Shown here: positions 22,906-58,928 of the stretch, one piece after another
How positions within the stretch are numbered: position 1 is the stretch's first letter
How the letters are laid out: each line of letters begins with the position of its first letter
Source of the DNA: Nymphon striatum
Taxonomy: Eukaryota
Assembly (NCBI GenBank): GCA_016618385.1
Contig: JABFOP010000159.1
Span: 502,555 to 566,554, forward strand
DNA: 64,000 bases
Direction of reading: 5' to 3'
Notes under the pieces: model-generated
Databases searched by the model: none
Told to the model about the DNA's origin: nothing
The model's input: the letters and a program-made list of their open reading frames with translations, nothing else
Program-made: the position numbers and the translations under genes

Positions 22906-25089
22906 TAGTCCGGGAGCCAACTGCCATTTTTCCCCTTAACCTTGCATTGTTGTATTAAGTTTTTTTTACTGTTGATTTTGGTAGCCTAGGGTCTCTATTT
23001 TCAGAAACTGCTTGATGACATGTTGTCACCTTTGAGCAATTTGAGAAATTCAAGATGGCGTCCAAGATGATATAAATGACCATAACTCCCTACCTGTTCA
23101 TCATAGGAAGGTGATTTTTGTCTCTATACCTAGGTTTTAGGGGTCAAGCTATCCATTAGAACTAAGTATTATGTTAATATCGTATTACATAATGGTAATT
23201 TCCAAGATGAGTCTGTGAAAGACTATATAGCGAACTTCAACTATGCCATAGGAAAAAGGTTACGGGTCGAGTACGTGTATCTGATATTTGACAGATATTA
23301 TGATTACAGCACGAAAAGTGTTACCAGAGGATCTAGGGCAACTGGTGTCAGTAGGGCTCATCATTTGCAAGTCAACAGTAAACTTCCAGCGCAGAAGATT
23401 CTACTAACCTCTTCCAAAAACAAGAAGCAACTGATGCAACTGATAGTTGATGATTTTGTCCAGGATAAGAAGTTTCACGAGGACAACACACAACATTACA
23501 AGTTAGTGGTAACAGGAGCAGATCCGGTGCCAATCGAAATCAGTGAAGGTGGAGTTGTCATCTCACGGGCAGATCTGTCAACTTCACACGAAGAAGCAGA
23601 TAACGTCATTGTCCAACAGGTGTTGAGTTGTGCCGCGGAAAATGCAGAAAGCAAAATCACTGTTGTTGCCGATGACACTGACGTCTTTGTACTGTTGTTG
23701 TATTATCATCACATGGCAAATCTCAAGAATGTTGTATTGATGGAGTCCCCATCAAAGGAAGGGCGGTGCTTGATATAGGCAAAACTGTGCAGAAGCATTG
23801 TCAGATAGTCGAAGGAATACTCCCGGCACATACACTTTCTGACTGTGACACCGTCGCCTCCTATTTTAAAATTGGAAAGGCTACTGTACTCAAAACACTT
23901 CGATCGGGGCACTCACTTAACTTGTTGGGTGCACCAGGGCATTCTATGGAATCTGTTATTCAACAGGCTACCTCCTTCATTTCCGCGTGCTATGGACAAA
24001 CAGACTGTAGTACAATGTCAGAGACAAGGTTAAAGGTATGGCTGTCACAAACAGGCAAAGGGTCATCAACACTGAAGTTGTGTACCTTGCCACCAACAAC
24101 TGAGGTATTCAAAGAGAAGAGCTCACTATCAGGCTTTGGTATGGCGGTCACTGAAAGCGCAGAATCCACCCGAGTTGGACTCAACGGAATATGGTTGGGT
24201 AAAGGATGACCAAAACAAGTCCCTTCAACCAGTCACCCTACCTGATGAAGTCGAACTAGCCCCACAGATGGTACTACGTCTAATAAAATGTGGATGCCAC
24301 AGTACTACTCCATGCAGTTCACGTGCTTGTAGTTGCAACTCTGCAAACATGAAATACACAATATTTTGCGCCTGCTATAATCAGGGTTGCTGTAACCTGA
24401 CATCATAGCTGATTGCATGTCTTTGTGATGCACATGAGCAACACAACGTACAACAGTGTAGATTATTTGGTAAAGTGGTAGCCATCCTTAATTATGACTT
24501 GTATAATATGCTTTTGGTAGTCTGTGAGAATTCAGATTTACAATTAAAGAACATTTGTTATAATATAACACCTGTGGTCGTTTACCTTTTCATATTTTCC
24601 ACCAAGATTGAATAGTATAGAAGATATACCAGTGCTTGTAAACTGGCAGCCATCTTGGATTTGTAGATGACATCATCAGTATATGAACTTTGATCTGATA
24701 CAGATAGATGTGTCTCCAAAATACTCAGGGATAGACACCTTCACGACTAATTTGGAGTAAATAGTATATATGCCAGTTTTAGTGTTACGGCGGCCATCTT
24801 GGAAATTACTATTATATAATACGATATAAACATAGTACTTAGTTCTAATGGATAGCTTGACCCCTAAAACCTAGGTATAGAGACAAAAATCACCTTCCTA
24901 TGATGAACAGGTAGGGAGTTATGGTCATTTATATCATCTTGGACGCCATCTTGAATTTCTCAAATTGCTCAAAGGTGACAACATGTCATCAAGCAGTTTC
25001 TGAAAATAGAGACTCTTGGCTACCAAAATTAACAGTAAAAAAAAAATTAATACAACAATGCAGGGTCAACCATCTCTGCCCCCGGACTA
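22906..25089 (+). mobile_element. TIR DNA element (about 2.2 kb, about 230-bp terminal inverted repeats) carrying a PIN-like and CXC ORF
   Basis: 22906-23170 is the reverse complement of 24836-25089 at about 95% identity. The flanks are GGCTA|TAGTCCGGG...CCCGGACTA|CTAAG, suggesting a target-site duplication of CTA or TA. Internal ORFs at 23215-24408 are in three frames. Confidence 0.65.
23215..24408 (+). CDS. TE-borne ORF: PIN/FEN-like nuclease-type acidic motifs plus C-terminal Cys-rich CXC-like module (frameshifted or spliced)
   Basis: The ORF spans three frame segments (23215-23778, 23766-24209, 24136-24408). Motifs include SHEEADNVIVQQV, VVADDTDVFVLLLYY, SDCDTVASYFKIGKATVLK and CGCHSTTPCSSRACSCNSANMKYTIFCACYNQGCC. 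The PIN-like reading comes from the motifs only, and I could not assign a family. Confidence 0.45.
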
Positions 25090-25959: not shown

Positions 25960-26103
25960 TTATGTGGCCGTTCAGTCATGTTTGCCAAGAATTCTGACGA
26001 TCAACAAAAGATTAGTAAAGAGGGATTTCATTTATATATATTTATTGATGAAATATATGTTCCTCGCTTGTGGGTAGAAACGCATCCAGAAACCAAAACA
26101 AAG
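25960..26103 (+). CDS. PARP4: PARP4-like exon 15
   Basis: The exon encodes LCGRSVMFAKNSDDQQKISKEGFHLYIFIDEIYVPRLWVETHPETKTK. This aligns to the human TDCKAVISTMEGSSLDSSGFSLHIGLSAAYLPRMWVEKHPEKESE. The acceptor is poly-T followed by CAG at 25957-25959 and the donor GTATTT at 26104. Confidence 0.7.
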
Positions 26104-26380
26104 GTATTTACTAATTTATCTGAAAATTAAATATTTCTGAATATATGTTTGTATTTTGAGTGATTTTAATGTATGAGGCATATCCAGAAAGTAAGCTCCA
26201 TTTGCAAATATTGTTATTTCATTGCTGTTGCTATGATTATCCTAATGTGTGACAACTTTTTTAATCCTATTGTCCAACTACAATGCCATTTTAAAAAATT
26301 AGATCATGCTTTGACATTATTCTGCGTGTTCATCATGTTTTAAAAATTTAAATTGCCCTTCTGAGAAATACAGTCTGTTT

Positions 26381-27058
26381 ATAGACATATTGGTCAGAGG
26401 TACCATCTATGGAAGCATAGTGGTGTGTGTGTGGAAGAAGAAGTGAGTCAAGTTAAGTTAATTAACATGATCTTGTGTGACCTTGTGTGATCTTATTTTA
26501 TTTGACAAATGGATCGTGCTTATATAGAGAAGAGAAGAGATAGACAATGTTCCTAAATGATACGTAAATAAAGTAGGGGGAAAAGCAAGGTCAGGTAGAA
26601 GGTCATCACAGCACTCCTTCGGCAAAAAATAAATGAATAAAATATACATTAGTCAGGAACATGATTAAAAAAGCTTGAAGTTGAATCGGCAAGGGCTGCT
26701 CGTTGCTGGGCTAACCGAAGAGACTGCATTGGCTGTTCAGGGAGACGGTTGCTGGCTGCTGGACTGACCGAGGAGACTGGGTTGCTTACTGCTGGGCTGA
26801 TCAAGGGGACAGTTGTGCTTGCGTCTTCATTCATCGTCAGAGTCGCCATTTATATAGACATGTTGGTCAGAAGTACCATCTATGGAAGCATAGTGGTCTG
26901 TGTGTAGAAGAAGAAACGAGTCGAGTTAAGTTAACATGACCTTGTGTGATCTTATTTTATTTGACAAATGGATCGTGATATAGAGAAGAGATAGACAACG
27001 AACCTGAATGATATGCAGATGAAGCAAGGGGAAAAGCAAGGTCAGGTAGAAGGTCACT
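26381..27058. repeat. two direct copies of a 200 to 245-bp repeat (26381-26625 and 26853-27058) separated by a CTG-rich spacer with internal 35-bp repeats
   Basis: ATAGACATATTGGTCAGAGGTACCATCTATGGAAGCATAGTGGT...GGAAAAGCAAGGTCAGGTAGAAGGTCA occurs twice. The spacer 26660-26830 contains GCTGGGCTRAYCRAGGRGAC repeats. The minus-strand ORF at 26649-26849 is low-complexity. Confidence 0.6.
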
Positions 27059-27564
27059 ACATGTTATTTGTTTCATAGTTTCATGAATATGAAACCAGCA
27101 GGCGTTCATTCAGTAAGGTGTTTAGAGAAAATGCCACTAGTGAATCAATGGTAATGGTTATAATAATAATCATTATGGTTCGAATATTTGATTTTCATGG
27201 TCCTTCGCTGCTGGTAAACTCAATGATTTGTGATCGTTCATATACCTGATCTTGATTGACTCTCTTCAAAATCAAAGTTTGTGATCTAATACCTGAAGCA
27301 GGTTTCTTGCAATATTGTGGCGATAGTGAAACAACTATTTTGGAATGATTGGACTATATTTAACTGCTCTAAACCATTACTATCAATCGTTTTCGTAAAA
27401 AAAAAAACTACAAGTGTACTCAAACTTTTGAGCGGTAGTGTAGTTATGAGATAATTCAGAATATGAATATATAGTTAGTTAGAATTACGTGCTCGGCAAC
27501 AAATCCCTTGTATGAAGTCTGAATAATCTTTCCTTAATTATTGTACAGGCAGATTCATCCTGAT

Positions 27565-28300
27565 TTCTAGCCAAAAGCTCTTCTATTGACTTTGCATTGG
27601 AATTACGGGGGGTAAGTGATAGCAGGGCATTTGAAAATTATATGTTCTATATCTTCGTTTGGATGTTCGCATAGCTGACATTTAGGTGATGTAGAAAAAT
27701 AAAATCTGTGCAGGTAGCTGTAGGATGGAAAGTGGTTGAATCGGAATTTTGTTATGATGACTTGGTGTTGCCTGCTAAGATTATGGTATTTGTTTAGGTT
27801 CGGTTTGATTTGAATTGAAATGTAACTTTGTCCCGTAGTTTCATACCCCCATCGAAGATTCCATGTCTCAGAGTTAGAAGTTGATATCTTGCATAAATAA
27901 GAGAACGGAAAAGTAATTTGTACTGGTATCGAACCAAGACAGGTTGCAGTTTTAGCCAAATAATCTGCTTATTCATTACCAGCAATGCCCACGTGGCTTG
28001 GAATCCATTGGATGGCTACATTTGCTGGTATGTTTGAAATAGTAGCCATAATTGACCAGCAGCAAAGATGGTGATATTCGGATAGTCAATATAAATTTAC
28101 GGATTGGAGGGATGATTTAGAGTCTGATAGCATGACGAATTTGTGTTGAACTGGTGAGGCAAGATCCTTAATTTCCTGAATAGCTCTGTTAATGGCAATC
28201 AGTTCAGCTTCCAAGATGAAGCACCGAGGTAACGGTACGGTTACTTCAATATTCTCATTTTAGATAAAGATTCCTGCACCAGGTGAATTGGTTCAAAGAC
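27565..28300 (-). mobile_element. non-LTR retrotransposon 3' fragment (ORF2 C-terminal CCHC-like tail plus upstream RNase-H-like segment)
   Basis: The minus-strand ORF 27603-27959 ends ..SPKCQLCEHPNEDIEHIIFKCPAI. This is the C..C..H....C tail typical of CR1/L2-type ORF2. It lies in the intron before vWA exon 16. Confidence 0.5.
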
Positions 28301-28394
28301 CTAGCCACTTTGTTTTATATTTAAAGTGTGTTCAGTCTGTGCATTTTCCTATGTCATAATTGTTCTCGATTTTAATTCTCGGTATGCATTTTAG

Positions 28395-28581
28395 GCTTGC
28401 ATGATGACATTTTATCCAGACTTCAAATGTCAACAGATAAAACCTCATGAAGTTCTGATTGTTATTGATGCATCAAATTCAATGAAGTTGGATGCATTTG
28501 AAAATGCTGTGAAGCTAAGTCTCCTTTGTTTGAGACTGCTTAGTTATTCAACATCATTTAATGTTGTTGCGTTTGGATCTG
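28395..28581 (+). CDS. PARP4: PARP4-like exon 16 (vWA domain; MIDAS-type DxSxS motif)
   Basis: The exon encodes ACMMTFYPDFKCQQIKPHEVLIVIDASNSMKLDAFENAVKLSLLCLRLLSYSTSFNVVAFGS. This aligns to the human ACMLVFQPDLDV..EVIICLDCSSSMEGVTFLQAKQIALHALSLVGEKQKVNIIQFGT. The acceptor is TTTTAG at 28389-28394. The exon ends in phase 1. Confidence 0.85.
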
Positions 28582-28672
28582 GTAATTATTTCAATTATAT
28601 CTATTCTAAGTAAATTTTTCTATTGAATTTGAAAATATATGATATGAACTTGGTATAAAACTTTCTTTTCAG

Positions 28673-28937
28673 TTTTTCATGAGCTATTTCCAAGACCACA
28701 GCTTTTAACGGACAAGAATCGTCTTTTAGCTGAAACATTTATTGGTTGCCTTGCACCAAATCTTGGAAATACTGATTTGTATCAAATTTTGAGGCCTAAC
28801 TACTTGCTTTTATCTACTTCTAGTCATATTAAAAACATATTCTTAATATCTGATGGCCATATCAATTGTCAAAAAGATATCTTGAACGATCTCAGAAAAG
28901 GAGACCTCAGATGTCGTTTCTTCACATTTGCTGTTGG
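28673..28937 (+). CDS. PARP4: PARP4-like exon 17 (vWA domain continuation)
   Basis: The exon encodes VFHELFPRPQLLTDKNRLLAETFIGCLAPNLGNTDLYQILRPNYLLLSTSSHIKNIFLISDGHINCQKDILNDLRKGDLRCRFFTFAVG. This aligns to the human YKELFSYPKHITSNTMAAEFIMSATPTMGNTDFWKTLRYL..RNILLVSDGHLQDE..TRLFACGIG. The exon ends in phase 2. Confidence 0.8.
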
Positions 28938-30635
28938 GTAAATTTGAAATTTATGATATATTATATACATGCCTGCTCAAATTCAAAATTTGCATGAACG
29001 GGAAAATGGTTATGCAAATATTTTTTGCAAAACTGATTATAGTTTGCATAACCATTTTTTTTTATGTGATGAAAACAACTATATTTCAATTTTTTTTTTT
29101 CTAGATCTCCAGATCTGGAGATATAGACGGGAGGCCTTTGCTCAGCAGTGGGCCTAGTATGGCCTCCAAATAGCCTCAATATCCTGATAATTTACTAATT
29201 GATCAATTTTATTTTTTTTTTTATTTTTAACACTCGTCCTAAGACGAGTTATATTTATTCAGAATAAAAAACATTTTACACAGAAACGTAAATATACTAT
29301 AACAGAAGGAAACAGAAAATACATATTTCATAAACTAAAATGTTAATGGATGGAGTTTATTGCATTTATTTCAAGTTATCAATGTAGATTAGCATTCTTT
29401 TTCTTTGTTGCTTCAGGAATATTAAAAAAAGTTTTAATTTTGTTGACTGTTCATTATATGGGCTCAGAATATGGTGGATATGTCCAGTTAAAACGGACAC
29501 CGATGGATGCAGTTGAGTATAAAAAGGTATATGTAGCTTTGGGCATTCGAATATTTCGTGGAAGGAATATTTAGTTGATCATTTCATTTACATATTCATA
29601 ATTTTTGTTAGAAGATAAAACAAAATAAAAACTACCAAATCTCAATTGACTTACAGAAGAAACAACACTTATTTTATTTTTTAAATTCAATTATTTTTTT
29701 CTTTTTCATTTTTTCTTTTTTATTAGTTGGTTTTTATATAAATTGGTTATGCTAAAATATTTTACTTAAAATATTTACGAAGCGCTCGTTCGTGCAATTT
29801 GACAAGCAGTGCTCAAATATAATGTGTTCTCAAAAGTGTGTGACTTTTTTCCTAGCAAGTTCATTATTATTAAGCCATTATTCAACTTGCTAAGATATTT
29901 ATTGTAATAAGGAATGTGTGTGTCAATGTGTTCCTTATCAATACTGATACCATAATTTTCAGAATTTGAAGCTTTTCATAGAATTTTTTTTCAAAATCCA
30001 CTTGACCTCAACAAGTGAGGTAAAACAACCTTAACCCTGTGGAGTCGCAAGTGACATATATGTCCCCTAGCCCTTTAGGTCGCAAGGGACATATATGGGC
30101 CAGAATCGGAGATCAACATTTTCATCAATTTTTTTCACTAAATCTGAACCGATCGGAATGAAACTTCACATAAATGAAGTTCAATAGTTTTTCGCACCCT
30201 GTGCAAAAAAACAGCCAAATCAAACTATGTTTTCACATTCTCGGACAGATCAAAAAACCATCTTACCATTCCGACAATTTCGCTTTTTATCCCAAAAACG
30301 CTGAACCGACTGTCCTCTAATAGAGTGCATGTGTTTTGAAATGAATAAAATAGCTTTGATTCCCTGAACCATAACCATAAATGAACGAATAAACACGACT
30401 TGCGTTTCTTTTGCTGTCGAGTATATATGTGAGACTGGTTGAGTCTTTAACATCGTGACTCTGGTGGCTGAAGGACCCAGGTTTGAATCTAGTTTGAGCC
30501 TTCCATTTATTCAGTCTTCACACATTGCACATTATGTTGTTTCCTTTCTTAATCAAATGCAGGAATAAATCAATAATTATTAGAATAAAATAGTTTCCTT
30601 CCTTATCATTAACCTTTCTATTTAAATGCCATCAG

Positions 30636-30735
30636 ATGTGCTGCAGATAAACATTGCATGCGTTTATTGTCTCAACACAGTGGAGGAGCATTTCAAAATT
30701 TTAATGTTGATTCCAAGTCAAAATGGAAGAAAAAG
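30636..30735 (+). CDS. PARP4: PARP4-like exon 18
   Basis: The phase-2 acceptor is CATCAG at 30630-30635. The exon encodes GCAADKHCMRLLSQHSGGAFQNFNVDSKSKWKKK. This aligns to the human GSTANRHVLRILSQCGAGVFEYFNAKSKHSWRKQ. The donor is GTACAT at 30736. Confidence 0.7.
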
Positions 30736-31818
30736 GTACATTAAAAGTTTTATACTAATCCAGTTATTGCTTCACCCTACATTTATTATTATATTTGCTG
30801 GGCTCAAAATTTGGTTTTCTGGCTCAAGGCTAGTATTTTAAAAGTTGAACGAGTAGATTTACTAAATCAGTGGTCTGAATGCCCAGTAAAAGATATGGAG
30901 ATGCAAATTTAAAAATTTTACATTTATTTTTTGGTGTCCGCCCTTTTTCAGGCAGAAACGCACTTCTGAGCACTATTAACAATGTCCTTTTTTTAGATCC
31001 GAACACCTTTTTCAATTTAGAAAAGTGCTTCTTGATTACACTTTGTTATACATCTAAGTTAATTTTACAAGCAGTAAAAGTCAAATATCCTAAAAAACAT
31101 TGCAACTAACAAAGCGTTTTAAGAATATAAAGCACTATTCGGAATACAAAAAACCACAAAAATCAGAGTTTTTAAGCAATCCATAAAAGGAAATTTTGTA
31201 ATTGCAAAACTTGCAAGAACAGCACTTTATTATGCGCATGTACAGATAATAAAATTCAAAATTGTGCCTGCAACCGCCGGTTCTGGCGGTCCCAACTTTA
31301 TCCACCCCTGGCTTTCATTCTCTGTTTATATTCTTGGGGAAAATACTTGAAATGTTTGATACTATTTTACAAAAAGTACTTGCCATTGAATACATGTCAT
31401 GTGATTCTTGATTATTAATGAATTAAGAATTAATGCAATCTAATGATTATATGTGAGAGTTTACTAGCCACAGTCTGTAGTGACTGACCATCCTCATTAT
31501 AAGGATGGTGCTTGAGGTTTGTCCTCATAAAGAATCAACCAGGTCAACAACGAGACTCTAAAATTAAGGATTCTTTGTTCATCTTGCTATTTTCCTCTCT
31601 GTTGTCATCAGAATGACAAGTAAAGGAGAAATAAAGATTGTCCATCACTTCTTCAAATTGAAAAAATGTTTTCTTCATTTTGATCATCATTGAAGAAGAA
31701 ATGAATGAATTTAATTTTTTCTAAATCTTTTTATCTTCCTGTATAACCTGCTTCTGTAAATAATAGATTAATGGACAACTGTTTGTTTTGTAACATTTTT
31801 ATCTATATTTTTTTACAG

Positions 31819-31995
31819 GTAATGCATCAACTGAAGTGTTCTGAAAATTATAGTCTTAATGATGTTCACGTAACTTGGCCAGGTTTAACTGACAGCTCAA
31901 AAATTAAGCAAGCACCGAGTAAATTACCTGCTTTATTCAGTGGTTCTCAGCATGTGATATATGCATTGGCTTCAGAAGATGTTGAATTTTATACG
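31819..31995 (+). CDS. PARP4: PARP4-like exon 19
   Basis: The exon encodes VMHQLKCSENYSLNDVHVTWPGLTDSSKIKQAPSKLPALFSGSQHVIYALASEDVEFYT. This aligns to the human IEDQMTRLCSPSCHSVSVKWQQLNPDVPEALQAPAQVPSLFLNDRLLVYGFIPHCTQ. The acceptor is TTACAG at 31813-31818 and the donor GTATGT at 31996. Confidence 0.65.
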
Positions 31996-32992
31996 GTATG
32001 TTTAATTAAATCATTAATTTCTTTTAAGAGCAATTTTTATGTATACAATACATTTAACAGTGTCAGTGTCAGTGGCCAAGGTGGTCATAAATGCACTTCA
32101 ATGTGAAACCGAAAAACTTGCGTTGATGCGCAAATATCTCGAAATCTATCCCGAAATAACCAGAAATAATGATGCGAAAACATGATGCAGCATGAAATTT
32201 TCAAAATGTGTATATCTTTTTTTGTTTAAGTGTTACGACAGTATTTGTATTGCTACTCTGGAACTGTGGGTAATAGATTGTCTTTCTTTAAGGCAACCTT
32301 TTAGGCACTAATTTTGGATTTAACCTTTTCTATTGCTGGATAATTACATTCAGGCAATGTACTATCAACCGAGTGAGGATGTTTCTGTTGAAAAATACCC
32401 CAGGCTTCAGCTGGTTTAATCAGTCTGTTGCTTTGCACGAAGATTCTCACTACAGTTGATAAATGCGGCATCACAAACACAATACCCCTAGAAGAGGACA
32501 AAGTTATGTTTTGTCTGCTTTTCTACTTTGCCACTGAATTCCTTATAATTTGGTTCATAACATCTACTCCTCTTTTGTCTTTGAATTGGAGCACATTTAC
32601 AGGAGCATTTAGAACATTCTGAACATCTTCAAAACTTAGCACGATGGCATGAGCAGCGCATGACACACAGAGTGGATGTGTAGAAAACAAAGACTTTTTT
32701 AAGGGTTTTAAACCAACCAACGAATGCTGTTTTATCTTTTGAGCAAATTAGAATAATTTGGGCAAATTTAGGTGTTACATATTTTCACATTTTTCGGCCC
32801 CCTTGGCCGCTAATAATGATGTTAAATTGAAATTACAATTTCTCCATGTCTATCAAGTTTGCATATTCCAGAAGGCGGTGTTTTTACTTTTCGAAAAATC
32901 AATCCTTAAATTGCAAAACAGATCTAAAATATCTAGGTTTTCTATTAGTTGATTTTTCTTTTATTAATTGTATTTGTGTCTGCTGATTTTAG

Positions 32993-33073
32993 GCTTCTCT
33001 TTCTGCAAATGCTAATGGTGCTCTACTTCAAACTGTTTTAGAAAATTCAAAGAAGAACAAAATAACTGGATCA
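32993..33073 (+). CDS. PARP4: PARP4-like exon 20
   Basis: The acceptor is TTTTAG at 32987-32992 and the donor GTAAGC at 33074, both phase 0. The exon encodes ASLSANANGALLQTVLENSKKNKITGS. This resembles the human ATLCALIQEKEFRTMVSTTELQKTTGT. Confidence 0.55.
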
Positions 33074-33144
33074 GTAAGCTCTTCATTTGATAAAATTTTT
33101 TAAAGATATTTTTCATTTTTATATATTTTTTCTTTTTTGCCTAG

Positions 33145-33331
33145 TTAATTCATGCTTTAGCTGCACGTGCCATATTAAGAGATTGGGAAGATGGTTTACT
33201 CTATGATGATGTGTCAGAAGAAATTCAAACTAAGAAGTTCATGCAAAAAGCCATTATAGATATGAGTATAGAACATTCCGTCTTATGTTCCCTGACCAGT
33301 TTCATTGCCATTGAGAGACGAGACAAGGCTT
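33145..33331 (+). CDS. PARP4: PARP4-like exon 21 (3' boundary uncertain)
   Basis: The exon encodes LIHALAARAILRDWEDGLLYDDVSEEIQTKKFMQKAIIDMSIEHSVLCSLTSFIAIERRDK. This aligns to the human MIHKLAARALIRDYEDGILHENETSHEMKKQTLKSLIIKLSKENSLITQFTSFVAVEKRDEN. The only GT after RRDK is at 33332, which gives phase 1. Confidence 0.65.
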
Positions 33332-33697: not shown

Positions 33698-34330
33698 ACA
33701 AGCCAGAGATTGTGAGCATCATCATCATCATCATCAGCCCATATTGGCCCACTGCTGAGCAAAGGCCTCCTGTCTAGATCTCCAGTCCTCTCTATCGGCA
33801 GCTCTTTCAACTCAATCCCTGTCAAACTTGTGTATTGAGATAAGCTGTCCTAAATAAATATATCTATCAACTTGGTCCAAGGCCACATTTCCTGTCATAA
33901 TGGGTTGGATTTCCACGTTTCTGTTAAACATGACCTTAGTCTTACTCAAATTAATCTCTAAACCTACTTTATTACTGGCAGTTCTCAGTTCCTCAACCAT
34001 AAGTTGAAGCTCCTGAGGGGACTTTGAGAACAGGACTACATCGTCGGCGAACCTGAGGTTGATCAGTCTATCGCCATTTATGGGGATTCCTTTCGAAGTC
34101 CAGTTTAGGCATCTAATTACATTCTCCAAGCAAGCTGTAAATAGTTTTGGAGATATGGAATCTCCTTGTCTCATTCCTTTCTCTAATCTAATCTTATTTA
34201 TATTGGTATGAAGCTTTATATTAGAAGTTCCAAGTCCAAAAATTTGGTCCAGCATTCTTATGTATAACTCCAGTGTTAGATGCTAATCAACCAAGAGAGC
34301 AGGCAGGATTTAGAAGCGGGTTTTCAACCA
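33698..34330 (-). mobile_element. RTE-like LINE fragment (reverse-transcriptase motifs, 3' UTR and (CATCAT)n tail)
   Basis: The minus-strand ORF 33812-34255 encodes ..GMRQGDSISPKLFTACLE...INLRFADDVVLFSKS..ELQLMVEEL (RT motifs including FADD). (CATCAT)n and GCCCACTGCTGAGCAAAGGCCTCC lie at 33712-33780. The element sits in the intron between exons 21 and 22. Confidence 0.65.
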
Positions 34331-35215: not shown

Positions 35216-37258
35216 TCTATTTATGTTGTCGTAAATCCATGATGCTCCTGTCTTTATGCCTTCATACATTCTTTTCCTTGAGTGTGAAGTCCAATCTCGA
35301 TATGCAGCTAATTTACAAAGTTGTGTATTGTGCTATTTCACACATTAATTGATAATGCTTGATTCCTAAGCTTTATGCGTGAAGAAAATAGTTTTTAAGT
35401 TGTGCTAGATATTTCATATCTATTGCCACTTCCAGTTATGAGTGGGACAAATGTGTCCGGAGAAAATTCTAACATGATACAGGGGTTCCATTAGTTTTGA
35501 AAGTAGGAGGTAGTGGTATAGTGACGAGCGCAAGCGAGGCTAGAAAAAATGTTCTCCGTTGATACCAAAAAGAACTTTTTGAGTACTTAAATTATTAAAG
35601 TAATAACTGCTTTTATTGGATGCAGATTTGATTGCATGAGATTTTGAAGTGATTTATTTAACAATATCCTTCGTTACTTAATCAGTTAGTGGAGGGCGAC
35701 GGAGCAGGAAGCCATCAATTTGCTGGCTCATATAAGTTCCCATGTAAGATGGGGTAAAGGGGAGTGCAATAGCAAATATCAGATGTCAGAATTACTAAAA
35801 TTTAGTAGTGGTAGGGAGTTCAGTCACCAAGACCAATGTTTAAGAAATTGTGTTTAAAAGGAAAACAGCAGTTTAAGCATTCTTTTAAAAAAATAATGAA
35901 GTAAATCGCTCCACTGGATACAATTTTATAGCTAAATGAAGATTTCAATAATTGCTCTTTTTGAAGAAAATTCCCTCAAAAGACACAAGGGAAATGTATA
36001 GCCTAATTCAAAGACAATGGCACCAATTAGTGCCAGAAGGATCTGGCACTAACCATGTTGTATTTTCCCGCACAGGACAGATACGAAAACCAGGCAACTT
36101 CTACGACATTCTGCTGGGAATTTTGAAGAATTCTATATATAACACGATAGGTTTTGTGGTTCAAATTACAGGAGGATTAACACACGAAATAGGGTATCCC
36201 CGTAAAATGTTGCCTAATCATGGTGCCGTGTAGCGATCACGCGCGAAACATTTGCTCAGTTCAGATACAAAATTAAGCAACCCAAACACATCGTAGCTTA
36301 ACTAAACATATTTTATTTAAGATATACACATCTTCTTTATATCTAATCATAATATAAATGCTAAAAACTTTTTTTTTATGGGATAACTTGGCGCCTAAAA
36401 AATAGGTGTATATGAGAGATTCACCACCAATGTGATGCCATTAGGCTGGCTGACTGAACTCCCTAGTAGTGGTTATCACCGAATGTAAATAAACTGGCAA
36501 AACGCAAATGATGTCGCCAAATGGCATAAATCTCATAATATGTCATATCAGATGGTTAAATCGAAATTAGAATGAATTATCGTTTGTCAAGTTTAAAATG
36601 ATATGTGAAATCGATGGGGAAAAAGAATTTCGGACTTTTTTTTACAGTAAATATGGAATGTGAAATAGGTCCGATATCGGCTATCGAAAAACCCCTTTAC
36701 CCCTCCCCTTCATATAAAGATTTATAAGTATTTGTCCACATGATCTTTGAAGTCATTCATAGTTTTTGCCTCGATGGCCTTTCGTAATACTAGTATTACT
36801 CATTACGAAAAAGTATTTTTTTCTTTTACTTTTTTTTTAATGTGGAAGTAGACGGCTCTATTATTAAATATGGCGGCTATTTTAGCCGCTAGCCGCTTTT
36901 AAACGACATGTCTGTGATATATTCATTAGAACCAGTGAATAAGTGATGCATAATTTTATTGACTGAAATTTAAGAGTAAATCATTCTTCATAAACAACCA
37001 CATTATTTTAAATGTAGAAAAAAAGGAAAGTGTCAATATTTTTTGCTGTTTTATTTTTTCTGAATCTGTTAGTAAGTTAAATATTAAAAAAGTGACAGAA
37101 TTTGAATTTTTTATAAGAGATATTTTATTTGACTTCTCAAAATATTGACAGTGTTTGAATTGATGTTTAGATTATTATAAATGTAAAAATAAAAGATAAG
37201 TGGTTTTTGTGCTAATTCTATTAGATTTATGCAATTTTAAATTTACAGACTGATCAAG

Positions 37259-37416
37259 CTAAAAGTAGTAAACTCTTAATCGAAAGTCTGAAAGAAAACA
37301 TTGATATTTTACCATCAGTAGAATATGATGATGAGGAAATTTTAAGTCCCACACCAACAAGTATGGACCTTGGTGCTGGTGAGAGAAAAGATGAATCGGA
37401 CAGTGATGTTGATAAG
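37259..37416 (+). CDS. PARP4: PARP4-like exon 22 (5' boundary uncertain: acceptor 37248 or 37258)
   Basis: The exon encodes (TDQA)KSSKLLIESLKENIDILPSVEYDDEEILSPTPTSMDLGAGERKDESDSDVDK. This is an acidic segment colinear with the human ESPFPDIPKVSELIAKEDVDFLPYMS. The donor is GTATTT at 37417, phase 0. Confidence 0.5.
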
Positions 37417-39849: not shown

Positions 39850-40044
39850 TCCTCAAGCTCTTCAGAAGTAAGATCAAGATCTAGATCTAGATCTAGATCA
39901 AGTCAAAGACACACATCATCTTCAAGATCTAGATCACGATCGAGAACTAGTTGCAAATTTAAAAAAATGTCAACGCCTGTAGGTGTTCGGAAGAAGAAAG
40001 TAATAAAAAAGTCAAAAACTTCAAGATTTAGTCAAAATTATCAG
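39850..40044 (+). CDS. PARP4: PARP4-like exon 23 (RS-dipeptide / basic stretch)
   Basis: The acceptor is TCTAG at 39845-39849 and the donor GTATGT at 40045, both phase 0. The exon encodes SSSSSEVRSRSRSRSRSSQRHTSSSRSRSRSRTSCKFKKMSTPVGVRKKKVIKKSKTSRFSQNYQ. It is built on a (GATCTA)n microsatellite. It lies at the position of the human basic KRKHRKIPFSKRK segment. Confidence 0.5.
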
Positions 40045-40116: not shown

Positions 40117-40168
40117 GATGACCAATCAATGCAGGTCTCAATTCAAGAACAAGGTGATTATAAAAGTA
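40117..40168 (+). CDS. PARP4: PARP4-like exon 24 (micro-exon)
   Basis: The acceptor is TATCAG at 40111-40116. The exon encodes DDQSMQVSIQEQGDYKS. A phase-1 donor GTAATT at 40169 is needed to match the following phase-1 exons. Confidence 0.4.
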
Positions 40169-41654
40169 GTAATTTTTTTTCTTTTTTTATCGTTTAAATT
40201 TTGATAAACTTAACATTAATTTAAATATAGTTTATTGATTGCCATTATGAGACATTTTCTTATAATTCAGTTTGAAAAGTGGGAGTTTTTGATCCTTGAT
40301 TTTGACCAAAACACTTGACCCTTATAAATAACAATTAACACGAATAGTCATACGAGAGGCTCAAGCCGCTTAGATTAGCTTTCAAGACGTTTGGAGGATT
40401 ACATTTTGTCGTGCGACACCTCTCAATCCTCTTAAATCTAATCCTAGTTCGAAGTAGGTTTAGATTTTCAATCCGGATACATTTTGTCGTGTGACAGGTC
40501 TTAAGCCAATAAACTCAAGCCGTCCTGTGCAGAATCGAATAGATGTTTGCTAAACGCTGACATCCGGGCATCACAAACAGTGAGTAAACAAACATGTATA
40601 AACCTTGAAACCAACTTCCAACGTTTTAAAACGAAAATCATGCTCATGCGCGAACTCGCTTTGCACCTCCCATTATCACCACTGGATATCAAAATTCAAT
40701 CCGAAATCTGAAGCCTCTTGAGTCTCAAGCGGCTTGAGATTTTGTCGTGTGACTCCAGCTATAGTCATAATAGTCAAATAGTTGTTCGTTTAACTTCAGT
40801 TTAACCTAAAAAAAATAAAATAAAATATTTACAAAATTTGCAAGATTAACAAAATAGTTACTTATAATTTGTGCAAAATTATAAATAAGAAAGAATCATG
40901 AGGGTGCCTGAACAATTGCCCTAAACAAATATGTTAACACCATTAAAAATGAAAAGAAAATAACTAATTCACTGGTTTGTTTGCAATTAATTAGATTAGA
41001 AAGTGTTGTGTTCAAAGATTATAATGTATGTCTTTGCTTTCACTTTGAAGGTTGTCTCTCCCTCACTTCCTTCCCCACCTGCTCATTTGCATATTATCTA
41101 CTGTTTTCTATAAATGTACTTTTGATATAAAATAAAGGGAGTCTCTACTCAACATCTGAAGAGGACTCATCTGATTACTGTCTCCTAGCTAGACCCACAA
41201 ACATAACAGAAAGTCTTCTTGTTTACTCTCCGTATATCATGGCCATAATTTCAACCATTATTTTTGCTTACTCATGGTTGCTGCTGTTGTTTGCAAAAAA
41301 ATTTACTTTACCAACATAATTTTTATCATTTTACTCAAACTAATAAATAACCAGTGCCATGAATTTATGTAATAATATTTATATAAACAATTAGTAATAT
41401 TTATAAAGGTTTACAACATTTATTTTAAGAAAGAACTAGATTTAAACTAAATATAGCTGTGTAAAATGTTGATGGTTCATTTCATTTCATTGTTATGGGG
41501 CTCGGCATATTTAGTGGTATGCTTAGTTTCATATCTACCTGTTGCCCTGCTTGCCTTTATCCAACATACTCTAAAATAATCTAAAACTTCAATACAACTC
41601 CAATTTTGTTCTTTGTTGTTAATCCATTTACACTTGGTATTTGTTGAATGATAG

Positions 41655-41753
41655 ATGTCCAATCAAATACGGGCAACCAAAAAGAGAAAGCTGAATGGAT
41701 GAACGATGTGCACGATGAAAGTAGTGAAGATGACATGGGGTTCAGCATATTTG
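41655..41753 (+). CDS. PARP4: PARP4-like exon 25 (copy 1 of triplicated exon; SSEDDMGFSIFG)
   Basis: The phase-1 acceptor is TGATAG at 41649-41654. The exon encodes VQSNTGNQKEKAEWMNDVHDESSEDDMGFSIF. The donor is GTAGCA at 41754. The exon and its flanking intron are tandemly repeated at 41912 and 42155. Confidence 0.55.
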
Positions 41754-41911
41754 GTAGCATCTTTATTTTTATATCTACCCATTATACTATTTCTAGTCCT
41801 GGTCTTTATCTAACATGCTTTAATAATATCATAAATTCCAATACTTACAACTAATTCTAGCTGTTTTCTTTTTTGTTACTATATTTATTCTTGATGTTTG
41901 TTCTATAATAG

Positions 41912-42016
41912 GTGACCCAATAGACGTGTGTGTTCAAAAAGAGAAAGCTGAATTGAAAGAAAAAAGAGTGCATGATGAAAGTAGTGAAGATGACATGGGG
42001 TTCGGCATATTTAGTG
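41912..42016 (+). CDS. PARP4: PARP4-like exon 26 (copy 2 of triplicated exon)
   Basis: The exon encodes GDPIDVCVQKEKAELKEKRVHDESSEDDMGFGIFS. The acceptor ATAATAG ends at 41911 and the donor GTATGT is at 42017, both phase 1. Confidence 0.5.
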
Positions 42017-42154
42017 GTATGTTTAGTTTCATATCTACCTGTTGCCCTGCTTGCCTTTATCTAACATACTCTAAAATAATCTAAAACTTCAATACAACTC
42101 CAATTTTTTTCTTTGTTGTTAATCCATTTACACTTGGTATTTGTTGTATGATAG

Positions 42155-42280
42155 ATGACCTATCAAATACAAATACTAGTATCCATAAAAAGAAAGCTGA
42201 ATTGAAAAAAAAAGCGATAGCAGCACAAACTATAGACGAAAAAAGTAGTGAAGAAGATATGGGGCTCGGCATATATCTTG
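42155..42280 (+). CDS. PARP4: PARP4-like exon 27 (copy 3 of triplicated exon)
   Basis: The exon encodes DDLSNTNTSIHKKKAELKKKAIAAQTIDEKSSEEDMGLGIYL. The acceptor TGATAG ends at 42154 and the donor GTATGT is at 42281, both phase 1. The upstream 135 bp of intron is about 95% identical to the intron before exon 25. Confidence 0.55.
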
Positions 42281-42599
42281 GTATGTTTAGTTTCATATCT
42301 ACATATTACCTTGCTTTTATCCTGGCGTTCATCTAACATGTTTTAGTAGCCATCTTAAACTCCAATACGTATTCCCTATAATTTATATAAACTTTTTCCA
42401 AGCCTCTTTCAATTTATCAAAAATTTCTGTTCATTGTTTCGATGAAATCAACATAATTCATGATAATTTCAAATCTTCTACAAAATTTCAATTGCATCAT
42501 ATTTCTGTATTTCTAATTTTTATCACTTTTAAAATTTTGGAGAATACAAAAAAAAGATACTCTATTAGAAAATTTGAAATATTAATTTTTTTAATACAG

Positions 42600-42671
42600 A
42601 TGAGGATGGTCACATTTCTAAATCTACTCCGGACATTGATGAATTTGTAGAAAAAGGCTCATCAAAGGCAT
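42600..42671 (+). CDS. PARP4: PARP4-like exon 28 (tentative)
   Basis: The phase-1 acceptor is ATACAG at 42594-42599. The exon encodes DEDGHISKSTPDIDEFVEKGSSK. The 3' end is unclear. A GT at 42672 gives phase 1, but the next exon I recognise needs phase 0, so intervening exons may exist. Confidence 0.35.
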
Positions 42672-43099: not shown

Positions 43100-43560
43100 T
43101 AAAACAAACTAGGTTTAACTCTTTCTTTTTCTTCTCGCCATATTCTCGCCAAGAGTGAATGGAAAGACTTGAAACTGTATGTGGCAAGGAATCGACATTT
43201 CCAAGGGACCCATCCACTTGCAGTATGGCAGAGGCAGGAGGATGCTGGGAGAGACGATTATGGAAACATTCTTAAGATTGTCCATCTTACAAGCATATAC
43301 CCCCTTAGTAATGCTGCCTGTGAGAGAGGCTTTTCTGTAATGAAAAGAGTGAAAAATGACTGGAGATGTTCACTAAACAATGAAGTTCTTGACCAGTTGT
43401 TGAGAATAAGCTTGACAGGCCCACAACTCGATGCATTCGACCCCACACCAGCAGTCAGAAGATGGTGGGTTAGTGGACAAAGAACCAAAAGACCAACAAC
43501 ATTGCCATATGGACCAAGGCATTAAGTATTATATGATATTAAGATAATCATGAGAAGGTT
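43100..43560 (+). mobile_element. hAT transposase C-terminal (hATC dimerisation) fragment, ZMYM1/Charlie-like
   Basis: ORF 43169-43525 encodes ..LSNAACERGFSVMKRVKNDWRCSLNNEVLDQLLRISLTGPQLDAFDPTPAVRRWW.. This matches the canonical hATC motif. No N-terminal transposase or TIRs were found, so it is a fragment. Confidence 0.6.
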
Positions 43561-45302: not shown

Positions 45303-45728
45303 TATTGCACTAAACTCACATGGGTTTATGGCAAGCTGGAAGCCGTTTCCATCCGACTGAGTGCAGTGCTTCTCTATTAGAACTACAAGCCATGGTGGGC
45401 GAGTCCTATTTCTCACACCGCAATCAATAATAGGCGTTCCTCGCAGGTGCTACACTCCACCGTGATCAACCTACTCTTTATTCGAATAGTGAAGTGTGTT
45501 CTTTAACGTGCAGAAGGTATGACTCTCCTTTACACAGGACCTCCATTTAACGTCCTATCTGAGGACGTAGTATTTTCTCTCTAAAACCAGCCTGCATCCA
45601 GTATCAGAGAGGACAGCAAAAGAATACACAACGTGAAGGGTGAAAAAGTGGTGGGGTTCGAATGGGATTCGAACCTGGGTCATTCAAGCCCAGAACAGAG
45701 ATCTTAACCACTCAGCCACCACGCTCTC
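45303..45728 (-). mobile_element. tRNA-derived SINE, near full-length copy
   Basis: The body starts GCACTAAACTCACATGGGTTTATGGCAAGCTGGAAGCCGTTTCCATCCGACTGAGTGCAGTG.... The right end is the reverse complement of a tRNA-like head (GAGCGTGGTGGCTGAGTGGTTAAGATCTCTGTTCTGGGCTTGAATGACCCAGGTTCGAATCCCATTCGAACCCC). Confidence 0.75.
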
Positions 45729-45834
45729 ACTCTGGACCGCTCTGGAATGAGTAGTGAAGTCATCGCTAATTATCAAAGGTTAATGGAGAATGAATCCTCT
45801 GCCTAGACTCTGACGACTTTTAATGAGTTATGCA

Positions 45835-46120
45835 GGTGCTCTACATTATCGGGACCTTCAACCCTACTATTGTTTGAATAGTTAAATGGGTTCTTTAATG
45901 TGCAGAGGGTGTGACTCCTCTACACGGGACACCTCCATTAACGTCCTATTTGAGGGCCGAAGTATTTTCTCTGTGGAACCAGCCTGCATCTGGTTCAAGA
46001 GGAAGGCATGATAATAATTGATATAAAAATGGGAGTTTTGATCAAGATTCGAATCCAGGTCAATTCGGCCCTACAACACACAAGTGGAAAGATGTTTTAT
46101 CCACTTGGCTACCCAGCCTT
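45835..46120 (-). mobile_element. second, divergent SINE copy immediately downstream
   Basis: It shares the SINE core GGGTTCTTTAATGTGCAGAGGGTGTGACTCCTCTACACGGGAC... but has a different tRNA-like head (..GATTCGAATCCAGGTCAATTCGGCCC..). Confidence 0.5.
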
Positions 46121-51200: not shown

Positions 51201-51429
51201 CAAATATTAGATACATAGACTTAGACCTTTTGATCCTCCTCTTACTGACTGCATTTTTAAACTTTAACCGCAAGATCAAATAACAAGAAAAGCAAGGAAA
51301 ATAAAAGAAATCCATCTGGTCATTACGCTCCATCTTTCGACAGAAAACTAAACAAAACAATTAAAAATAATAAAATATAATATAATAACAATGGTTGTTA
51401 TATTATTAAAATAAATTTTGTTTTTGTAG

Positions 51430-52138
51430 TGTTCCAAGATTTCACAGAAACTATACAGCATTTCTTGATGAAAATGAGCAAACTGCAGATGAAGCTGGCC
51501 CTTCTGAATTTGCGCCACCAGTAGCAAATTTAGGCTTTGGAAGAGCATTTTCTGGGCAACAAAATACGTCTTCCCCACTTGCACCAGGATGTATCTCTGG
51601 AAGTAGACATCTTCAGCAAAGGATAGGATTTCGCTTTGGAGGTGAAGGTGACCCTTCTGAAGTTGCGCCACCGGCAACAAATTTGAGTTATGGAAATGCA
51701 TCTTTACCATCTGCATCAGGATTTAGCTTTGGAAGTGTTCCGAGTAATTTTGGTGCACCTGCTACAGGATTCAGCTTTGGAAGCGGACCTCCTCAACAAC
51801 AAGTTAATCTTGCTCAACCTGCATCAGGATTTAGTTTTGGAAGTGGACCTCCTCAACAACAAGTTAGTCTTGCTCAACCTGCATCAGGATTCAGCTTTGG
51901 AAGTGGACCTCCTCAGCAACAATTTAATCTTGCCCAATCTGCATCGGGATTTAGTTGTGGAGGAGAACCTCGCAACAAAGATTTATCCAAACAATCTGCT
52001 GCTGCTGGTCATCTGTTTGGTTCAAATCAAGCTTTCTCTGCAACTTCTAGTTTATTTCGAGGTCCCATGATTGGTTCTAATTCAGTTAGTGCTCCAAGAT
52101 TTCAAAATGAAAGTAGAGCATCTACTTCTTGCCGAAAA
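51430..52138 (+). CDS. PARP4: PARP4-like large repeat exon, part A (FG-like 20-aa repeats; this frame ends at TGA 52139-52141)
   Basis: The phase-2 acceptor is TTGTAG at 51424-51429. The exon encodes SVPRFHRNYTAFLDENEQTADEAGPSEFAPP...PASGFSFGSGPPQQQVNLAQPASGFSFGSGPPQQQVSLAQPASGFSFGSGPPQQQFNLAQ... It has 60-bp internal repeats. It corresponds to the low-complexity human FGSAAPP..QFSQGPVPG region. This frame reaches a stop inside the second copy of a 662-bp tandem duplication. Confidence 0.5.
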
Positions 52139-52141
52139 TGA

Positions 52142-52638
52142 GCAAACTGCAGATGAAGGTGGCCCTTCTGAAGTTGCGCCACCGGCAACAAATTTGGATT
52201 ATGGAAGTGCATTTCCTGGGCAACAAAATAAGTCTTCCCCACCTGCATCAGGATTTAGCTTTGGAAGTGTTCCGAGTAATTTTGGTGCACCTGCTACAGG
52301 ATTCAGCTTTGGAAGCGGACCTCCTCAACAACAACTTAATCTTGCTCAACCTGCATCAGGATTTAGTTTTTTTTTTCAAGATCCAATGATTGGTTCTAAT
52401 TCAGTTACTTTTGAGGATTTTCTTCCACCAGCACCACAATCAACAGAAAATCATCAGTTGCCACCAGGTTCACAAAGATCTTTATTCTTTTCAAAACATC
52501 ATCAGATAGAAGGAAGTGCTTCAATACAGCACAGGAAGGCTTTCTTTTCTGTTACCAGCTTTCTCTCAGATATTTTGAAATATATTAGTCAAAGATATGT
52601 GCAGGATGAATCAGTGAAGAAACTCTTTGTGACACACG
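52142..52638 (+). CDS. PARP4: PARP4-like large repeat exon, part B (second duplication copy, +1 frame relative to part A)
   Basis: The frame-0 reading encodes ENEQTADEGGPSEVAPPATNLDYGSAFPGQQNKSSPPASGFSFGSVPSNFGAPATGFSFGSGPPQQQLNLAQPASGFSFF..MIGSNSVTFEDFLPPAPQSTENHQLPPG...ISQRYVQDESVKKLFVTHG. The donor GTAAAT is at 52639. Joining part B to part A requires a frameshift, or an intron that I did not find. Confidence 0.45.
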
Positions 52639-53460: not shown

Positions 53461-53917
53461 ATTTTTTTTTTTTTTTTTTTTTTTTAAACCTTAGTGCACT
53501 AAACTCACATAGGTTTATAGGCAAGCTGGAGGCCGTTTCCATCCGACTGAATGCAGTGCTTCTCTGTTAGAACTACGAGCCATGGTGGGCGAGTTCTATT
53601 TCTCACACCGCAGTCAAGAATAGGTGTTCCTCGCAGGTGCTACACTTCACCGGGATCACCCTACTCTTTATTCGAATAGTGAAGTGTGTTCTTTAACATG
53701 CAGAGGGTGTGACTCTCCTTTACACGGGACCTCCATTTAATGTCTTATCCGAGGGACGGAGTATTTTCTCTCTAAAACCAGCCTGCATCCAGTATCAGAG
53801 AGGAGAGCACGAGAATACACAACGTAAAGGGTTAAAAAGTGGTGGGGTTCGAATGGGATTTGAACCTGGGTCATTCGAGCCCAGAACAGAGATCTTAACC
53901 ACTCAGCCACCGCGCTC
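53461..53917 (-). mobile_element. tRNA-derived SINE, full-length copy with 25-nt poly-T (a poly-A tail on the minus strand)
   Basis: T25 then AAACCTTAGTGCACTAAACTCACATAGGTTTATAGGCAAGCTGGAGGCCG...GGGTTCGAATGGGATTTGAACCTGGGTCATTCGAGCCCAGAACAGAGATCTTAACCACTCAGCCACCGCGCTC. It is about 93% identical to the copy at 45303. Confidence 0.8.
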
Positions 53918-58643: not shown

Positions 58644-58928
58644 CACTTCACCGGGAATTGTCACCCTACTCTTGTTCGAATAGTGAAGTGGGTTCTTTAA
58701 CGTGTAGAGGGTATGGACTCTCCTTTACACGGGACCTCCATTTAACGTCCTATCCGAGGGACGGAGTATTTTCTCTCTAAAATCAGCCTACATCTAATAT
58801 CAGAGAGGAGAGTACGATAATACACAACGTAAACGGTGAAAAATGTGGCGGGGTTCGAATCAGATTCGAACCTGGGTCCTTCAGGCCCAGAATAACAATC
58901 TTAACCACTCAAGCCACCGCGTTCTCTC
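58644..58928 (-). mobile_element. tRNA-derived SINE, truncated copy abutting the LINE fragment
   Basis: ..CACTTCACCGGGAATTGTCACCCTACTCTTGTTCGAATAGTGAAGTGGGTTCTTTAACGTGTAGAGGG...GGGGTTCGAATCAGATTCGAACCTGGGTCCTTCAGGCCCAGAATAACAATCTTAACCACTCAAGCCACCGCG. Confidence 0.7.

Follow-up and report, generated by a model that had tools for sequence, protein, structure and literature searches.

The 64,000-nt stretch of Nymphon striatum DNA analysed here (hereafter the window; contig JABFOP010000159.1, positions 502,555 to 566,554) contains a gene for the vault enzyme PARP4. Within the linker of this protein, which separates the ITIH-like region from the MVP-interacting domain at the C-terminus, lies a tandem array of exon-plus-intron units whose peptides resemble the tail found in P-stalk proteins of the ribosome. 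The motif and its symmetric exon are ancestral to PARP4, from Amoebozoa to animals, and only the copy number is local; copy-number expansions occurred repeatedly and the array in the window is one of them. We regard this structural and evolutionary part of the explanation as highly probable, and interest in the locus rests on the motif to which the array points rather than on the triplication itself, which is ordinary tandem exon duplication.

The array occupies positions 41400-42440 on the forward strand and comprises three intact exons (E1, E2 and E3) and one decayed upstream unit (unit 0; Table 1), a tandem duplication of exon-plus-intron units inside the PARP4 linker. Each intact unit encodes a Lys/Glu-rich spacer followed by one acidic-hydrophobic short linear motif. 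All three acceptors consist of a pyrimidine-rich tract closing in TAG (YAG type), and each exon carries two codon-completing bases at its 5' end and a single base before the GT donor, giving phase 1 on both sides. Of the three, E2 preserves the motif best, its core being the canonical SSEDDMGFGIF. The core of E3 is degenerate (F to L and F to Y), and E1 has a weaker donor (TTG/GTAGCA, the slash marking the splice boundary) than the other two exons (both G/GTATGT). Unit 0 still shows MGLGIFS as a remnant of the motif (41494-41516), with a GTATGC donor at 41517 and its intron (41517-41654); it also contains an in-frame TAA (41462-41464) and has no usable acceptor. A further candidate exon at 41138 (GSLYSTSEEDSSDY...) was rejected, having a phase-1 acceptor and no usable donor.

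A repeat search of the window recovered a 75-nt core four times, at spacings of 240, 260 and 264 nt, together with a 176-nt pair (41495-41670 and 41995-42170) at 96% identity. The latter spans the last 22 exon bases, the whole intron and the start of the next exon of units 0 and 2, and is a recent conversion or duplication, later than the array. The three tandem units of the original prediction are therefore borne out by coordinates, repeat search and MAFFT alignment; its intron length of ~135 bp does not hold throughout, as intron 1 measures 158 nt, and it had overlooked the fourth, decayed copy. Its estimate of ~95% identity for the introns at 41517-41652 and 42017-42152 was close to the measured value (134/138 between introns 0 and 2, 97%). 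The repeat unit has no further copy anywhere in the 64-kb window and is therefore not a dispersed element. Tandem Repeats Finder, run on the 40-44 kb interval, did not report the array because its copies are too divergent; in the same interval no Rfam RNA family was found, and antisense open reading frames (ORFs) within the repeat had no Pfam match. Because the motif exon is symmetric, unequal crossing-over can alter copy number with the frame kept. As candidate cassette exons, E1-E3 could each be skipped without loss of frame between the phase-1 exit of exon B2 and the phase-1 entry of exon D, and the joined model remains open over its full length, in line with the earlier proposal that any combination of the exons splices in frame.

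The joined exons match the Pfam family PF00428 (Ribosomal_60s) with 34.5 bits (E=3.1e-8), above the gathering cut-off of 28.1 bits, in an alignment limited to the last 23-24 profile positions (65-88 of 88). Individually, E2 scored 22.1 bits (E=2.3e-4) and E1 17.5 bits (E=0.006, positions 65-88); neither E3 alone nor the human counterpart matched PF00428. Among 177,635 PDB sequences the best match was the tail of human P1, KKVEAKKEESEESDDDMGFGLF, with VQKEKAELKEKRVHDESSEDDMGFGIF aligned to APAEEKKVEAKKEESEESDDDMGFGLF (E=0.19); the human SDDDMGFGLF corresponds to SEDDMGFGIF in E2. Together with the Pfam match, this supports a resemblance to the P0/P1/P2 tail beyond chance, as had been predicted from the K/E-rich stretch ending in SSEDDMGFGIF. 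The N-terminal helical domain responsible for dimerization and uL10 binding (profile positions 1 to ~60) was not matched, and instead of forming a free C-terminus each copy runs up to a splice donor, with more coding exons downstream and the stop codon at 58008. Since only the last 24 profile positions align and the surroundings are PARP4, the element is a copy of the tail and not a member of the Ribosomal_60s family. In complexes of the stalk tail, F111, L113 and F114 occupy a hydrophobic pocket, Gly112 serves the backbone, and the last Asp and the acidic run also contribute to binding (PMC6162817; PMC3280276; PMC11624264). The window peptides would be compatible with these determinants: E2 reads DDMGFGIF-S-DD, with L to I in the hydrophobic triad and the Asp one residue later; E1 has Ser at position 112, and the triad of E3 reads L/I/Y.

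The spliced C-terminal region served as query for an exhaustive HMMER search covering 1.84 billion representatives, which returned 138 proteins, mostly full-length PARP4 with PARP and VIT domains. Scanning the linkers of these proteins revealed near-canonical stalk-tail motifs (EESDEDMGFGLFGD and similar) in many of them. Among animals, these include the sea spider Pycnogonum litorale (P0121, DDDDMGMGLFG), the scallop Argopecten irradians (P0126, XP_069141939, SEEESDEEEEMGFGLFEDD, present in all eight RefSeq isoforms) and the millipede Chamberlinius hualienensis (P0192, GAB6030512, MDEDFAMGFGLFDN). The motif was also found in Dictyostelium purpureum (P0164, F0ZTJ5; four copies, e.g. EESDEDMGFDLFGDYDD), Heterostelium album (P0209, DDSDEDMGFDLFGDYSQ), Cavenderia fasciculata (P0227, F4PYX9; two copies, e.g. 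EEEEEEDDGAMGFGLFDY), Synstelium polycarpum (P0185, ESSDNDMGFGLFGDYDD) and Mastigella eilhardi (P0224, FEDLGFDLFGG), as well as in a transcript-derived sequence (P0123, DDDDDDMGFGLFDD) and a contig-derived protein with four copies (P0171). The PARP4 consensus is [D/E]3-6-M-G-F-[G/D]-L-F-[G/D], often in 2-4 copies per linker; approximately half of the orthologous copies have Asp at the position of stalk Gly112 (GFDLFG).

Pfam assigned a BRCT, PARP, VIT and vWA architecture to the motif-bearing proteins and independently called Ribosomal_60s in motif-bearing PARP4s, the top match (43.7 bits, E=4e-11) being in D. purpureum. The core [ML]GF[GDSA][LI]F occurs 14 times in 10 of 137 proteins, ~300 times the expectation from composition-preserving shuffles (mean 0.05, maximum 2). 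HMMER alignments run continuously from the post-vWA anchor to the motif in P0121 and P0123. A profile search with an alignment of the motif regions, in which low-complexity words took up the candidate limit, gave at least four matches. In P. litorale the motif exon is likewise phase 1/1, with the donor directly after the motif (...ttg ttt g/gtacgt), so that this intron position is common to both species. The deposited P. litorale protein CAM1328057.1 (P0121; OZ207744.1, 13560-13800) ends in ...MGMGLFGT followed by a stop; its model reads through the canonical G/GTACGT donor into the intron, and this sea-spider PARP4 model is therefore truncated at the motif exon. A PARP4-like sequence of Lingula is truncated before the motif. 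The joined repeat peptide, searched against 5.8 billion proteins, had no match at E<=10, because exon sequence outside the motif evolves too fast and the species is absent from the collection. These comparisons show that the motif is conserved beyond this genome, against a chance low-complexity match, and they overturn the proposal of a lineage-specific amplification: PARP4s of Amoebozoa, a mollusc and arthropods carry it in the corresponding linker, and multi-copy arrays recur. What stands of that proposal is a copy number local to this gene. In five dictyostelid proteins (P0164, P0209, P0227, P0241 and P0185) a complete 14-3-3 domain (PF00244, E 2e-12 to 2e-26) separates the vWA region from the motif array, an architecture not seen in the animal PARP4s examined.

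Vertebrates retain degenerate remnants at the corresponding place (GLCGFALFDD in lungfish, DFMGYCMFDN in catfish). Human PARP4 reads EDFEEDGLGVL, and its counterpart, SEDFEEDGLGVL at about residues 1258-1269, has no Pfam match, consistent with the weak human counterpart noted originally. In the eel Synaphobranchus kaupii (P0210), residues ~1300-1340 consist of (MDEVGFAP)x5 at the motif position, apparently a distinct and degenerate expansion of this element.

Comparison between units points to constraint on the motif. The 42 motif-coding bases were more conserved than the introns between units 1 and 2 (39/42 against 102/138; Fisher test, p=0.005) and between units 2 and 3 (34/42 against 89/138; p=0.03), with a similar tendency between units 1 and 3 (32/42 against 96/154; p=0.07), and the 5' part of the exon was conserved no better than the intron. 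This is the pattern expected for a short linear motif under purifying selection in a drifting spacer.

The identity of the host gene as PARP4, on which the original prediction had relied, is confirmed by homologues, exon mapping and matches at both ends of the linker. Queried with the conserved ORFs of the window, searches returned 184 homologues at E<=1e-10, the best being annotated PARP4 proteins with PF00644, PF08487 and PF13768; the closest PARP4s (coral, snail and vertebrates) share 38-44% identity. When 120 PARP4 homologues were mapped onto the window by tblastn, all matches fell on the forward strand and placed the PARP catalytic domain ahead of VIT and vWA (Table 1), the domain order of PARP4. 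An ORF at 5992-6195 appears BRCT-like by eye. Exon A carries the anchor found ahead of the linker in every PARP4, 'EDVDxLPYxxW', its segment at 37291-37335 (KENIDILPSVEYDDE) matching EDVDFLPYVSW of four orthologues weakly but consistently (tblastn). Candidate exon B encodes an Arg/Ser dipeptide run (SRSRSRSRS...SRSRSRSR) followed by VRKKKVIKKSK, a Lys-rich stretch like a nuclear localization signal, at the position of the basic cluster that lies ahead of the acidic motif in human PARP4. The predicted mini-exon B2 would provide the phase-1 entry required by the repeat exons. Exon D would close the phase-1 block and is the least certain exon of the model, with a non-canonical donor (AAG/GCATGT) and an alternative GTAGAA donor at 42647. 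Assembled by hand on standard splice signals, the seven exons A, B, B2, E1, E2, E3 and D give an uninterrupted frame of 266 codons.

Downstream, coding sequence ending in phase 1 at ACG/GTAAAT (52638) is in frame with the last exon, which encodes the end of the MVP-interacting domain. Positions 57915-57995 match the extreme C-terminus of PARP4 (P0060, E=0.021; P0045, E=0.56; tblastn); the similarity of the last exon to PARP4 C-termini (...LELGKDWESATKQLL) is weak, and its position is right. Query stretch 395-436 also matched P0257 in the HMMER search. A C-terminal helical MVP-interacting domain (MINT/MVPID) thus follows a long disordered linker, as in PARP4; the Pfam copy used detected no family in the linker ORFs and the MVPID region, PF26156 and PF26166 included. 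The corresponding ITIHL-MVPID linker of human PARP4 is described as intrinsically disordered and fast-evolving (PMC10450202; PMC12280208).

Table 1. Features of the PARP4 gene in the window; a slash marks the splice boundary.
Feature	Position	Strand	Length and phase	Encoded sequence or content	Splice sites	Basis
Upstream PARP4 exons	11668-33330	+				tblastn
PARP catalytic	11668-14439	+				tblastn
VIT	18011-20526	+				tblastn
vWA	25969-28953	+				tblastn
Post-vWA ITIH-like exons	30616-33330	+		end ...LTSFIAIERRDK		tblastn
Exon A	37249-37416	+	phase 0/0	...KENIDILPSVEYDDE...	ACAG/, AAG/GTATTT	
Exon B	39850-40044	+	phase 0/0	open frame	CTAG/ acceptor, CAG/GTATGT donor	from sequence only
Mini-exon B2	40117-40153	+	phase 0 in, 1 out		ATCAG/ acceptor, CAAG/GTGATT donor	predicted
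Unit 0 (decayed copy)	41400-41654	+		5' half decayed, Lys-rich relic with stops		MAFFT alignment of four units
Exon E1	41655-41753	+	99 nt, phase 1/1	VQSNTGNQKEKAEWMNDVHDESSEDDMGFSIF(G), ending ...HDESSEDDMGFSIFG		
Exon E2	41912-42016	+	105 nt, phase 1/1	DPIDVCVQKEKAELKEKRVHDESSEDDMGFGIFS, ending ...HDESSEDDMGFGIFS		
Exon E3	42155-42280	+	126 nt, phase 1/1	DLSNTNTSIHKKKAELKKKAIAAQTIDEKSSEEDMGLGIYL, ending ...EKSSEEDMGLGIYL		
Candidate exon D	42600-42667	+	phase 1 in, 0 out	EDGHISKSTPDIDEFVEKGSSK		predicted
Further linker coding sequence	51430-52638	+		GFSFG-type repeats into start of MVP-interacting domain (...SIQHRKAFFSVTSFLSDILKY...)		
Last PARP4 exon	57703-58010	+	phase 1 in, TAA 58008-58010	...RYPVASHTLQLGHNWESFCFSLLFENS, then stop		

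On the ribosome, the stalk tail SD[D/E]DMGFGLFD of uL10, P1 and P2 recruits translational GTPases and GCN2 and docks ricin, Shiga toxins and trichosanthin, its last Asp contacting Arg235 of ricin (PMC6162817). PARP4 is anchored to the vault wall through its C-terminal domain, while the linker extends into the lumen (PMC12280208). In Dictyostelium, ~8% of cytosolic vaults contain an 80S ribosome, fixed in its orientation, and proximity labelling with MVP recovered 69 of 79 ribosomal proteins plus several PARPs (PMC13100048). The linker peptides of PARP4 may constitute a multivalent mimic of the P-stalk tail, which the MVP-interacting domain would tether inside the vault lumen. Docked there would be a stalk-tail reader, whose hydrophobic binding pocket is rimmed by basic residues; a translational GTPase (eEF2 or eEF1A), ABCE1 or GCN2, free or ribosome-bound, are the candidates. 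Translation factors or ribosomes would thereby be brought to PARP4 and the vault, and several copies could raise avidity, as the five stalk tails do on the ribosome. To our knowledge, the only mapped contact between PARP4 and the vault is the C-terminal MINT domain.

An ancient PARP4 motif, multiplied by symmetric-exon duplication and acting as a stalk-tail mimic, is the best overall explanation of the locus, and we put its chances at about even. That the partner is specifically a stalk reader is a more tentative proposition, somewhat short of even odds. The broadest version, in which the vault PARP has carried a multivalent internal stalk-tail copy since before the Amoebozoa/animal split and would use it to capture translational GTPases, ribosomes carrying them or ribosome-inactivating toxins, seems unlikely. 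Toxin decoying was discarded as the main function, simple competition being implausible when stalk tails should vastly outnumber vault copies; a sensor role for ribosome-inactivating toxins is possible. The earlier suggestion of an auto-epitope-like mimic found nothing in its favour.

Several observations weigh against a functional stalk-tail mimic encoded by this array. E1 has a weak donor and E3 a degenerate core, unit 0 no longer works as an exon, exon D depends on a GC donor, and the higher identity of the motif between units could also reflect short gene-conversion tracts. PARP4 copies are internal, whereas the stalk tail is a free C-terminus, and Asp replaces Gly112 in about half of the orthologous copies. 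The vertebrate protein, the one studied experimentally, keeps only a degenerate remnant, so that the role of the motif is dispensable or changed there. The vault lumen wall, moreover, is described as acidic (PMC12280208), which gives no argument for a stalk-reader partner specifically.

Some of these points are compatible with a generic acidic-hydrophobic linear motif that binds a vault component or PARP4 itself, or with a regulatory cluster of CK2 phosphorylation sites, the likeness to the stalk being convergent. Partners under such a scenario would include the MVP-interacting domain, through its basic face, MVP, through its basic NAD+ pocket, or TEP1. The internal position, the GFDLFG form (rather than GFGLFD) of half the orthologous copies and the better retention of the acidic run than of the hydrophobic core in vertebrate remnants fit it, as do the basic region of the MINT domain and the basic pocket forming the NAD+ site of MVP, both described in PMC12280208. 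However, the likeness extends along the entire stalk tail, taking in the hinge-like, Lys/Glu-rich stretch upstream as well as a Ser in an EESDDD context; M-G-F-G-L-F has remained nearly identical for >1 billion years in an otherwise unalignable linker; and vaults do contact ribosomes (PMC13100048). We consider a generic motif possible but, on this evidence, doubtful.

Expression of the units raises a separate concern, since they might be intronic remains, a single former motif exon that was duplicated in tandem and is now decaying, with at most one copy expressed, or none. The dead unit 0, the weak GTAGCA donor of E1, the degenerate E3 without a Pfam match, introns of units 0 and 2 as similar as their exons and the absence of any match at E<=10 to the joined peptide among 5.8 billion proteins would all follow. 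Nevertheless, E1-E3 all have uninterrupted frames bounded by YAG acceptors and GT donors, are phase 1/1, fit the phase-1 exit of B2 and the phase-1 entry of D, and conserve their motif-coding bases better than their introns, and the orthologous exon is expressed in other species (RefSeq isoforms and transcriptome assemblies), which makes an unexpressed relic improbable. A chance match of acidic low-complexity sequence is less credible still. The match is short (~11-25 residues), single exons score 17.5 and 22.1 bits, below the gathering cut-off, and the PDB match reaches only E=0.19, but the hydrophobic core MGFG[IL]F is not of low complexity, it turns up again in the PARP4s of no fewer than 11 distant taxa, ~300-fold above what shuffling predicts, and Pfam matches reach 43.7 bits. 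Recurrence across species thus contradicts coincidence, which we regard as very improbable.

In the accessible literature we found no paper joining PARP4 or vaults with the ribosomal stalk tail, and a term search of recent vault and PARP4 papers, among them PMC12280208 and PMC10450202 but not PMC13100048, returned no mention of it. The stalk tail is known as a motif type; its internal, multi-copy and deeply conserved presence in a vault PARP appears to be undescribed. The motif offers a deeply conserved and easily mutated peptide in an otherwise unalignable linker, nearly identical to the tail through which the ribosome recruits translation GTPases, GCN2 and ribosome-inactivating toxins. Given the oriented 80S ribosomes reported in Dictyostelium vaults (PMC13100048), it provides a concrete hypothesis for a link between vaults and ribosomes, and Dictyostelium, whose vault PARP has the strongest motif arrays, is a natural system in which to pursue it. 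Were the stalk-tail mimic correct, the motif would supply the molecular connection that is missing between vaults and the ribosomes observed within, and would place translation factors next to an ADP-ribosyltransferase. A stalk-tail motif in the linker also explains the Pfam 'Ribosomal_60s' hits inside some PARP4 proteins, and the array illustrates how fast the copy number of a docking motif can change through a symmetric exon.

The PARP4 linker here is rich in recent tandem duplications. At 51757-51951, within the coding sequence at 51430-52638 (+), a 60-nt coding tandem repeat (3.2 copies, 89% match) encodes PASGFSFGSGPPQQQVNLAQ, of nucleoporin-like GFSFG type, just upstream of the MVP-interacting domain. 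A second large duplication (51427-52088 and 52087-52407, block of ~660 bp) shows 87-95% identity over stretches of 143-145 nt; its copies lie in different reading frames relative to their own AG acceptors, which leaves the exon structure of 51430-52638 ambiguous. PARP4 introns also harbour a dispersed repeat of ~340 bp resembling a short interspersed nuclear element, in at least eight copies at 72-93% identity (45381-45780, 53571-53917, 17652-17936, 58644-58929, 14714-15053, 18548-18874 (-), 21645-21895 (-) and 45858-46016), which ARAGORN did not call tRNA-like. ARAGORN made two tRNA-like calls with a 4-base anticodon (catg), 137 nt apart at 2274-2346 and 2411-2483, probably repeats or pseudogenes. 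Transposon-like ORFs recognized by eye in the introns (33812-34255 (-), 43103-43522 (+) and 23215-24408 (+)) comprise a reverse-transcriptase-like fragment (...RFADDVVLFS...), a hAT-dimerization-like sequence (...AACERGFSVMKRVKNDWR...) and a cluster of 187, 147 and 90 aa.

Compared with the P-stalk tail of uL10/P0, P1 and P2 (consensus EESDDDMGFGLFD), the array shares a flexible Lys/Glu/Ala-rich stretch, a Ser-containing acidic run and M-G-F-G-[L/I]-F, as well as multivalency, the stalk having five tails, the window three copies and other PARP4s up to four; in both systems the motif lies in disordered sequence. The PARP4 copies differ in being internal rather than at a free C-terminus, in lacking the N-terminal dimerization domain of P1/P2 and in residing in a vault enzyme instead of a ribosomal protein. 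At position 112 Asp is frequent in PARP4s, and the window has Ile at L113, with the terminal Asp supplied by the next exon.

Vault PARPs of dictyostelids and invertebrates share with the window gene the succession of BRCT (a candidate domain in the window), PARP, VIT, vWA and a linker with 1-4 motif copies, although their copies are nearer to the stalk consensus (EESDEDMGFGLFGDYDD) and arose by separate duplications, and the dictyostelid proteins, unlike the window gene, have the extra 14-3-3 domain before the array. Human PARP4 carries SKRKMELSQPEVSEDFEEDGLGVLPAF (about residues 1245-1271; PDB 9bw6/9bw7) at the same place, shortly after the EDVDFLPYxSW anchor. As in the window, a basic cluster and a Ser/Asp/Glu run are followed by G-hydrophobic-G-hydrophobic-hydrophobic, whereas the human segment is a single copy with a degenerate GLGVL core and no Pfam match. 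Finally, the array conforms to the general mechanism of symmetric-exon tandem duplication in disordered regions, with a unit of exon plus flanking intron, phase 1/1, diverging copies and one decayed copy, but what it multiplies is a specific linear motif of deep conservation, neither a domain nor plain spacer.

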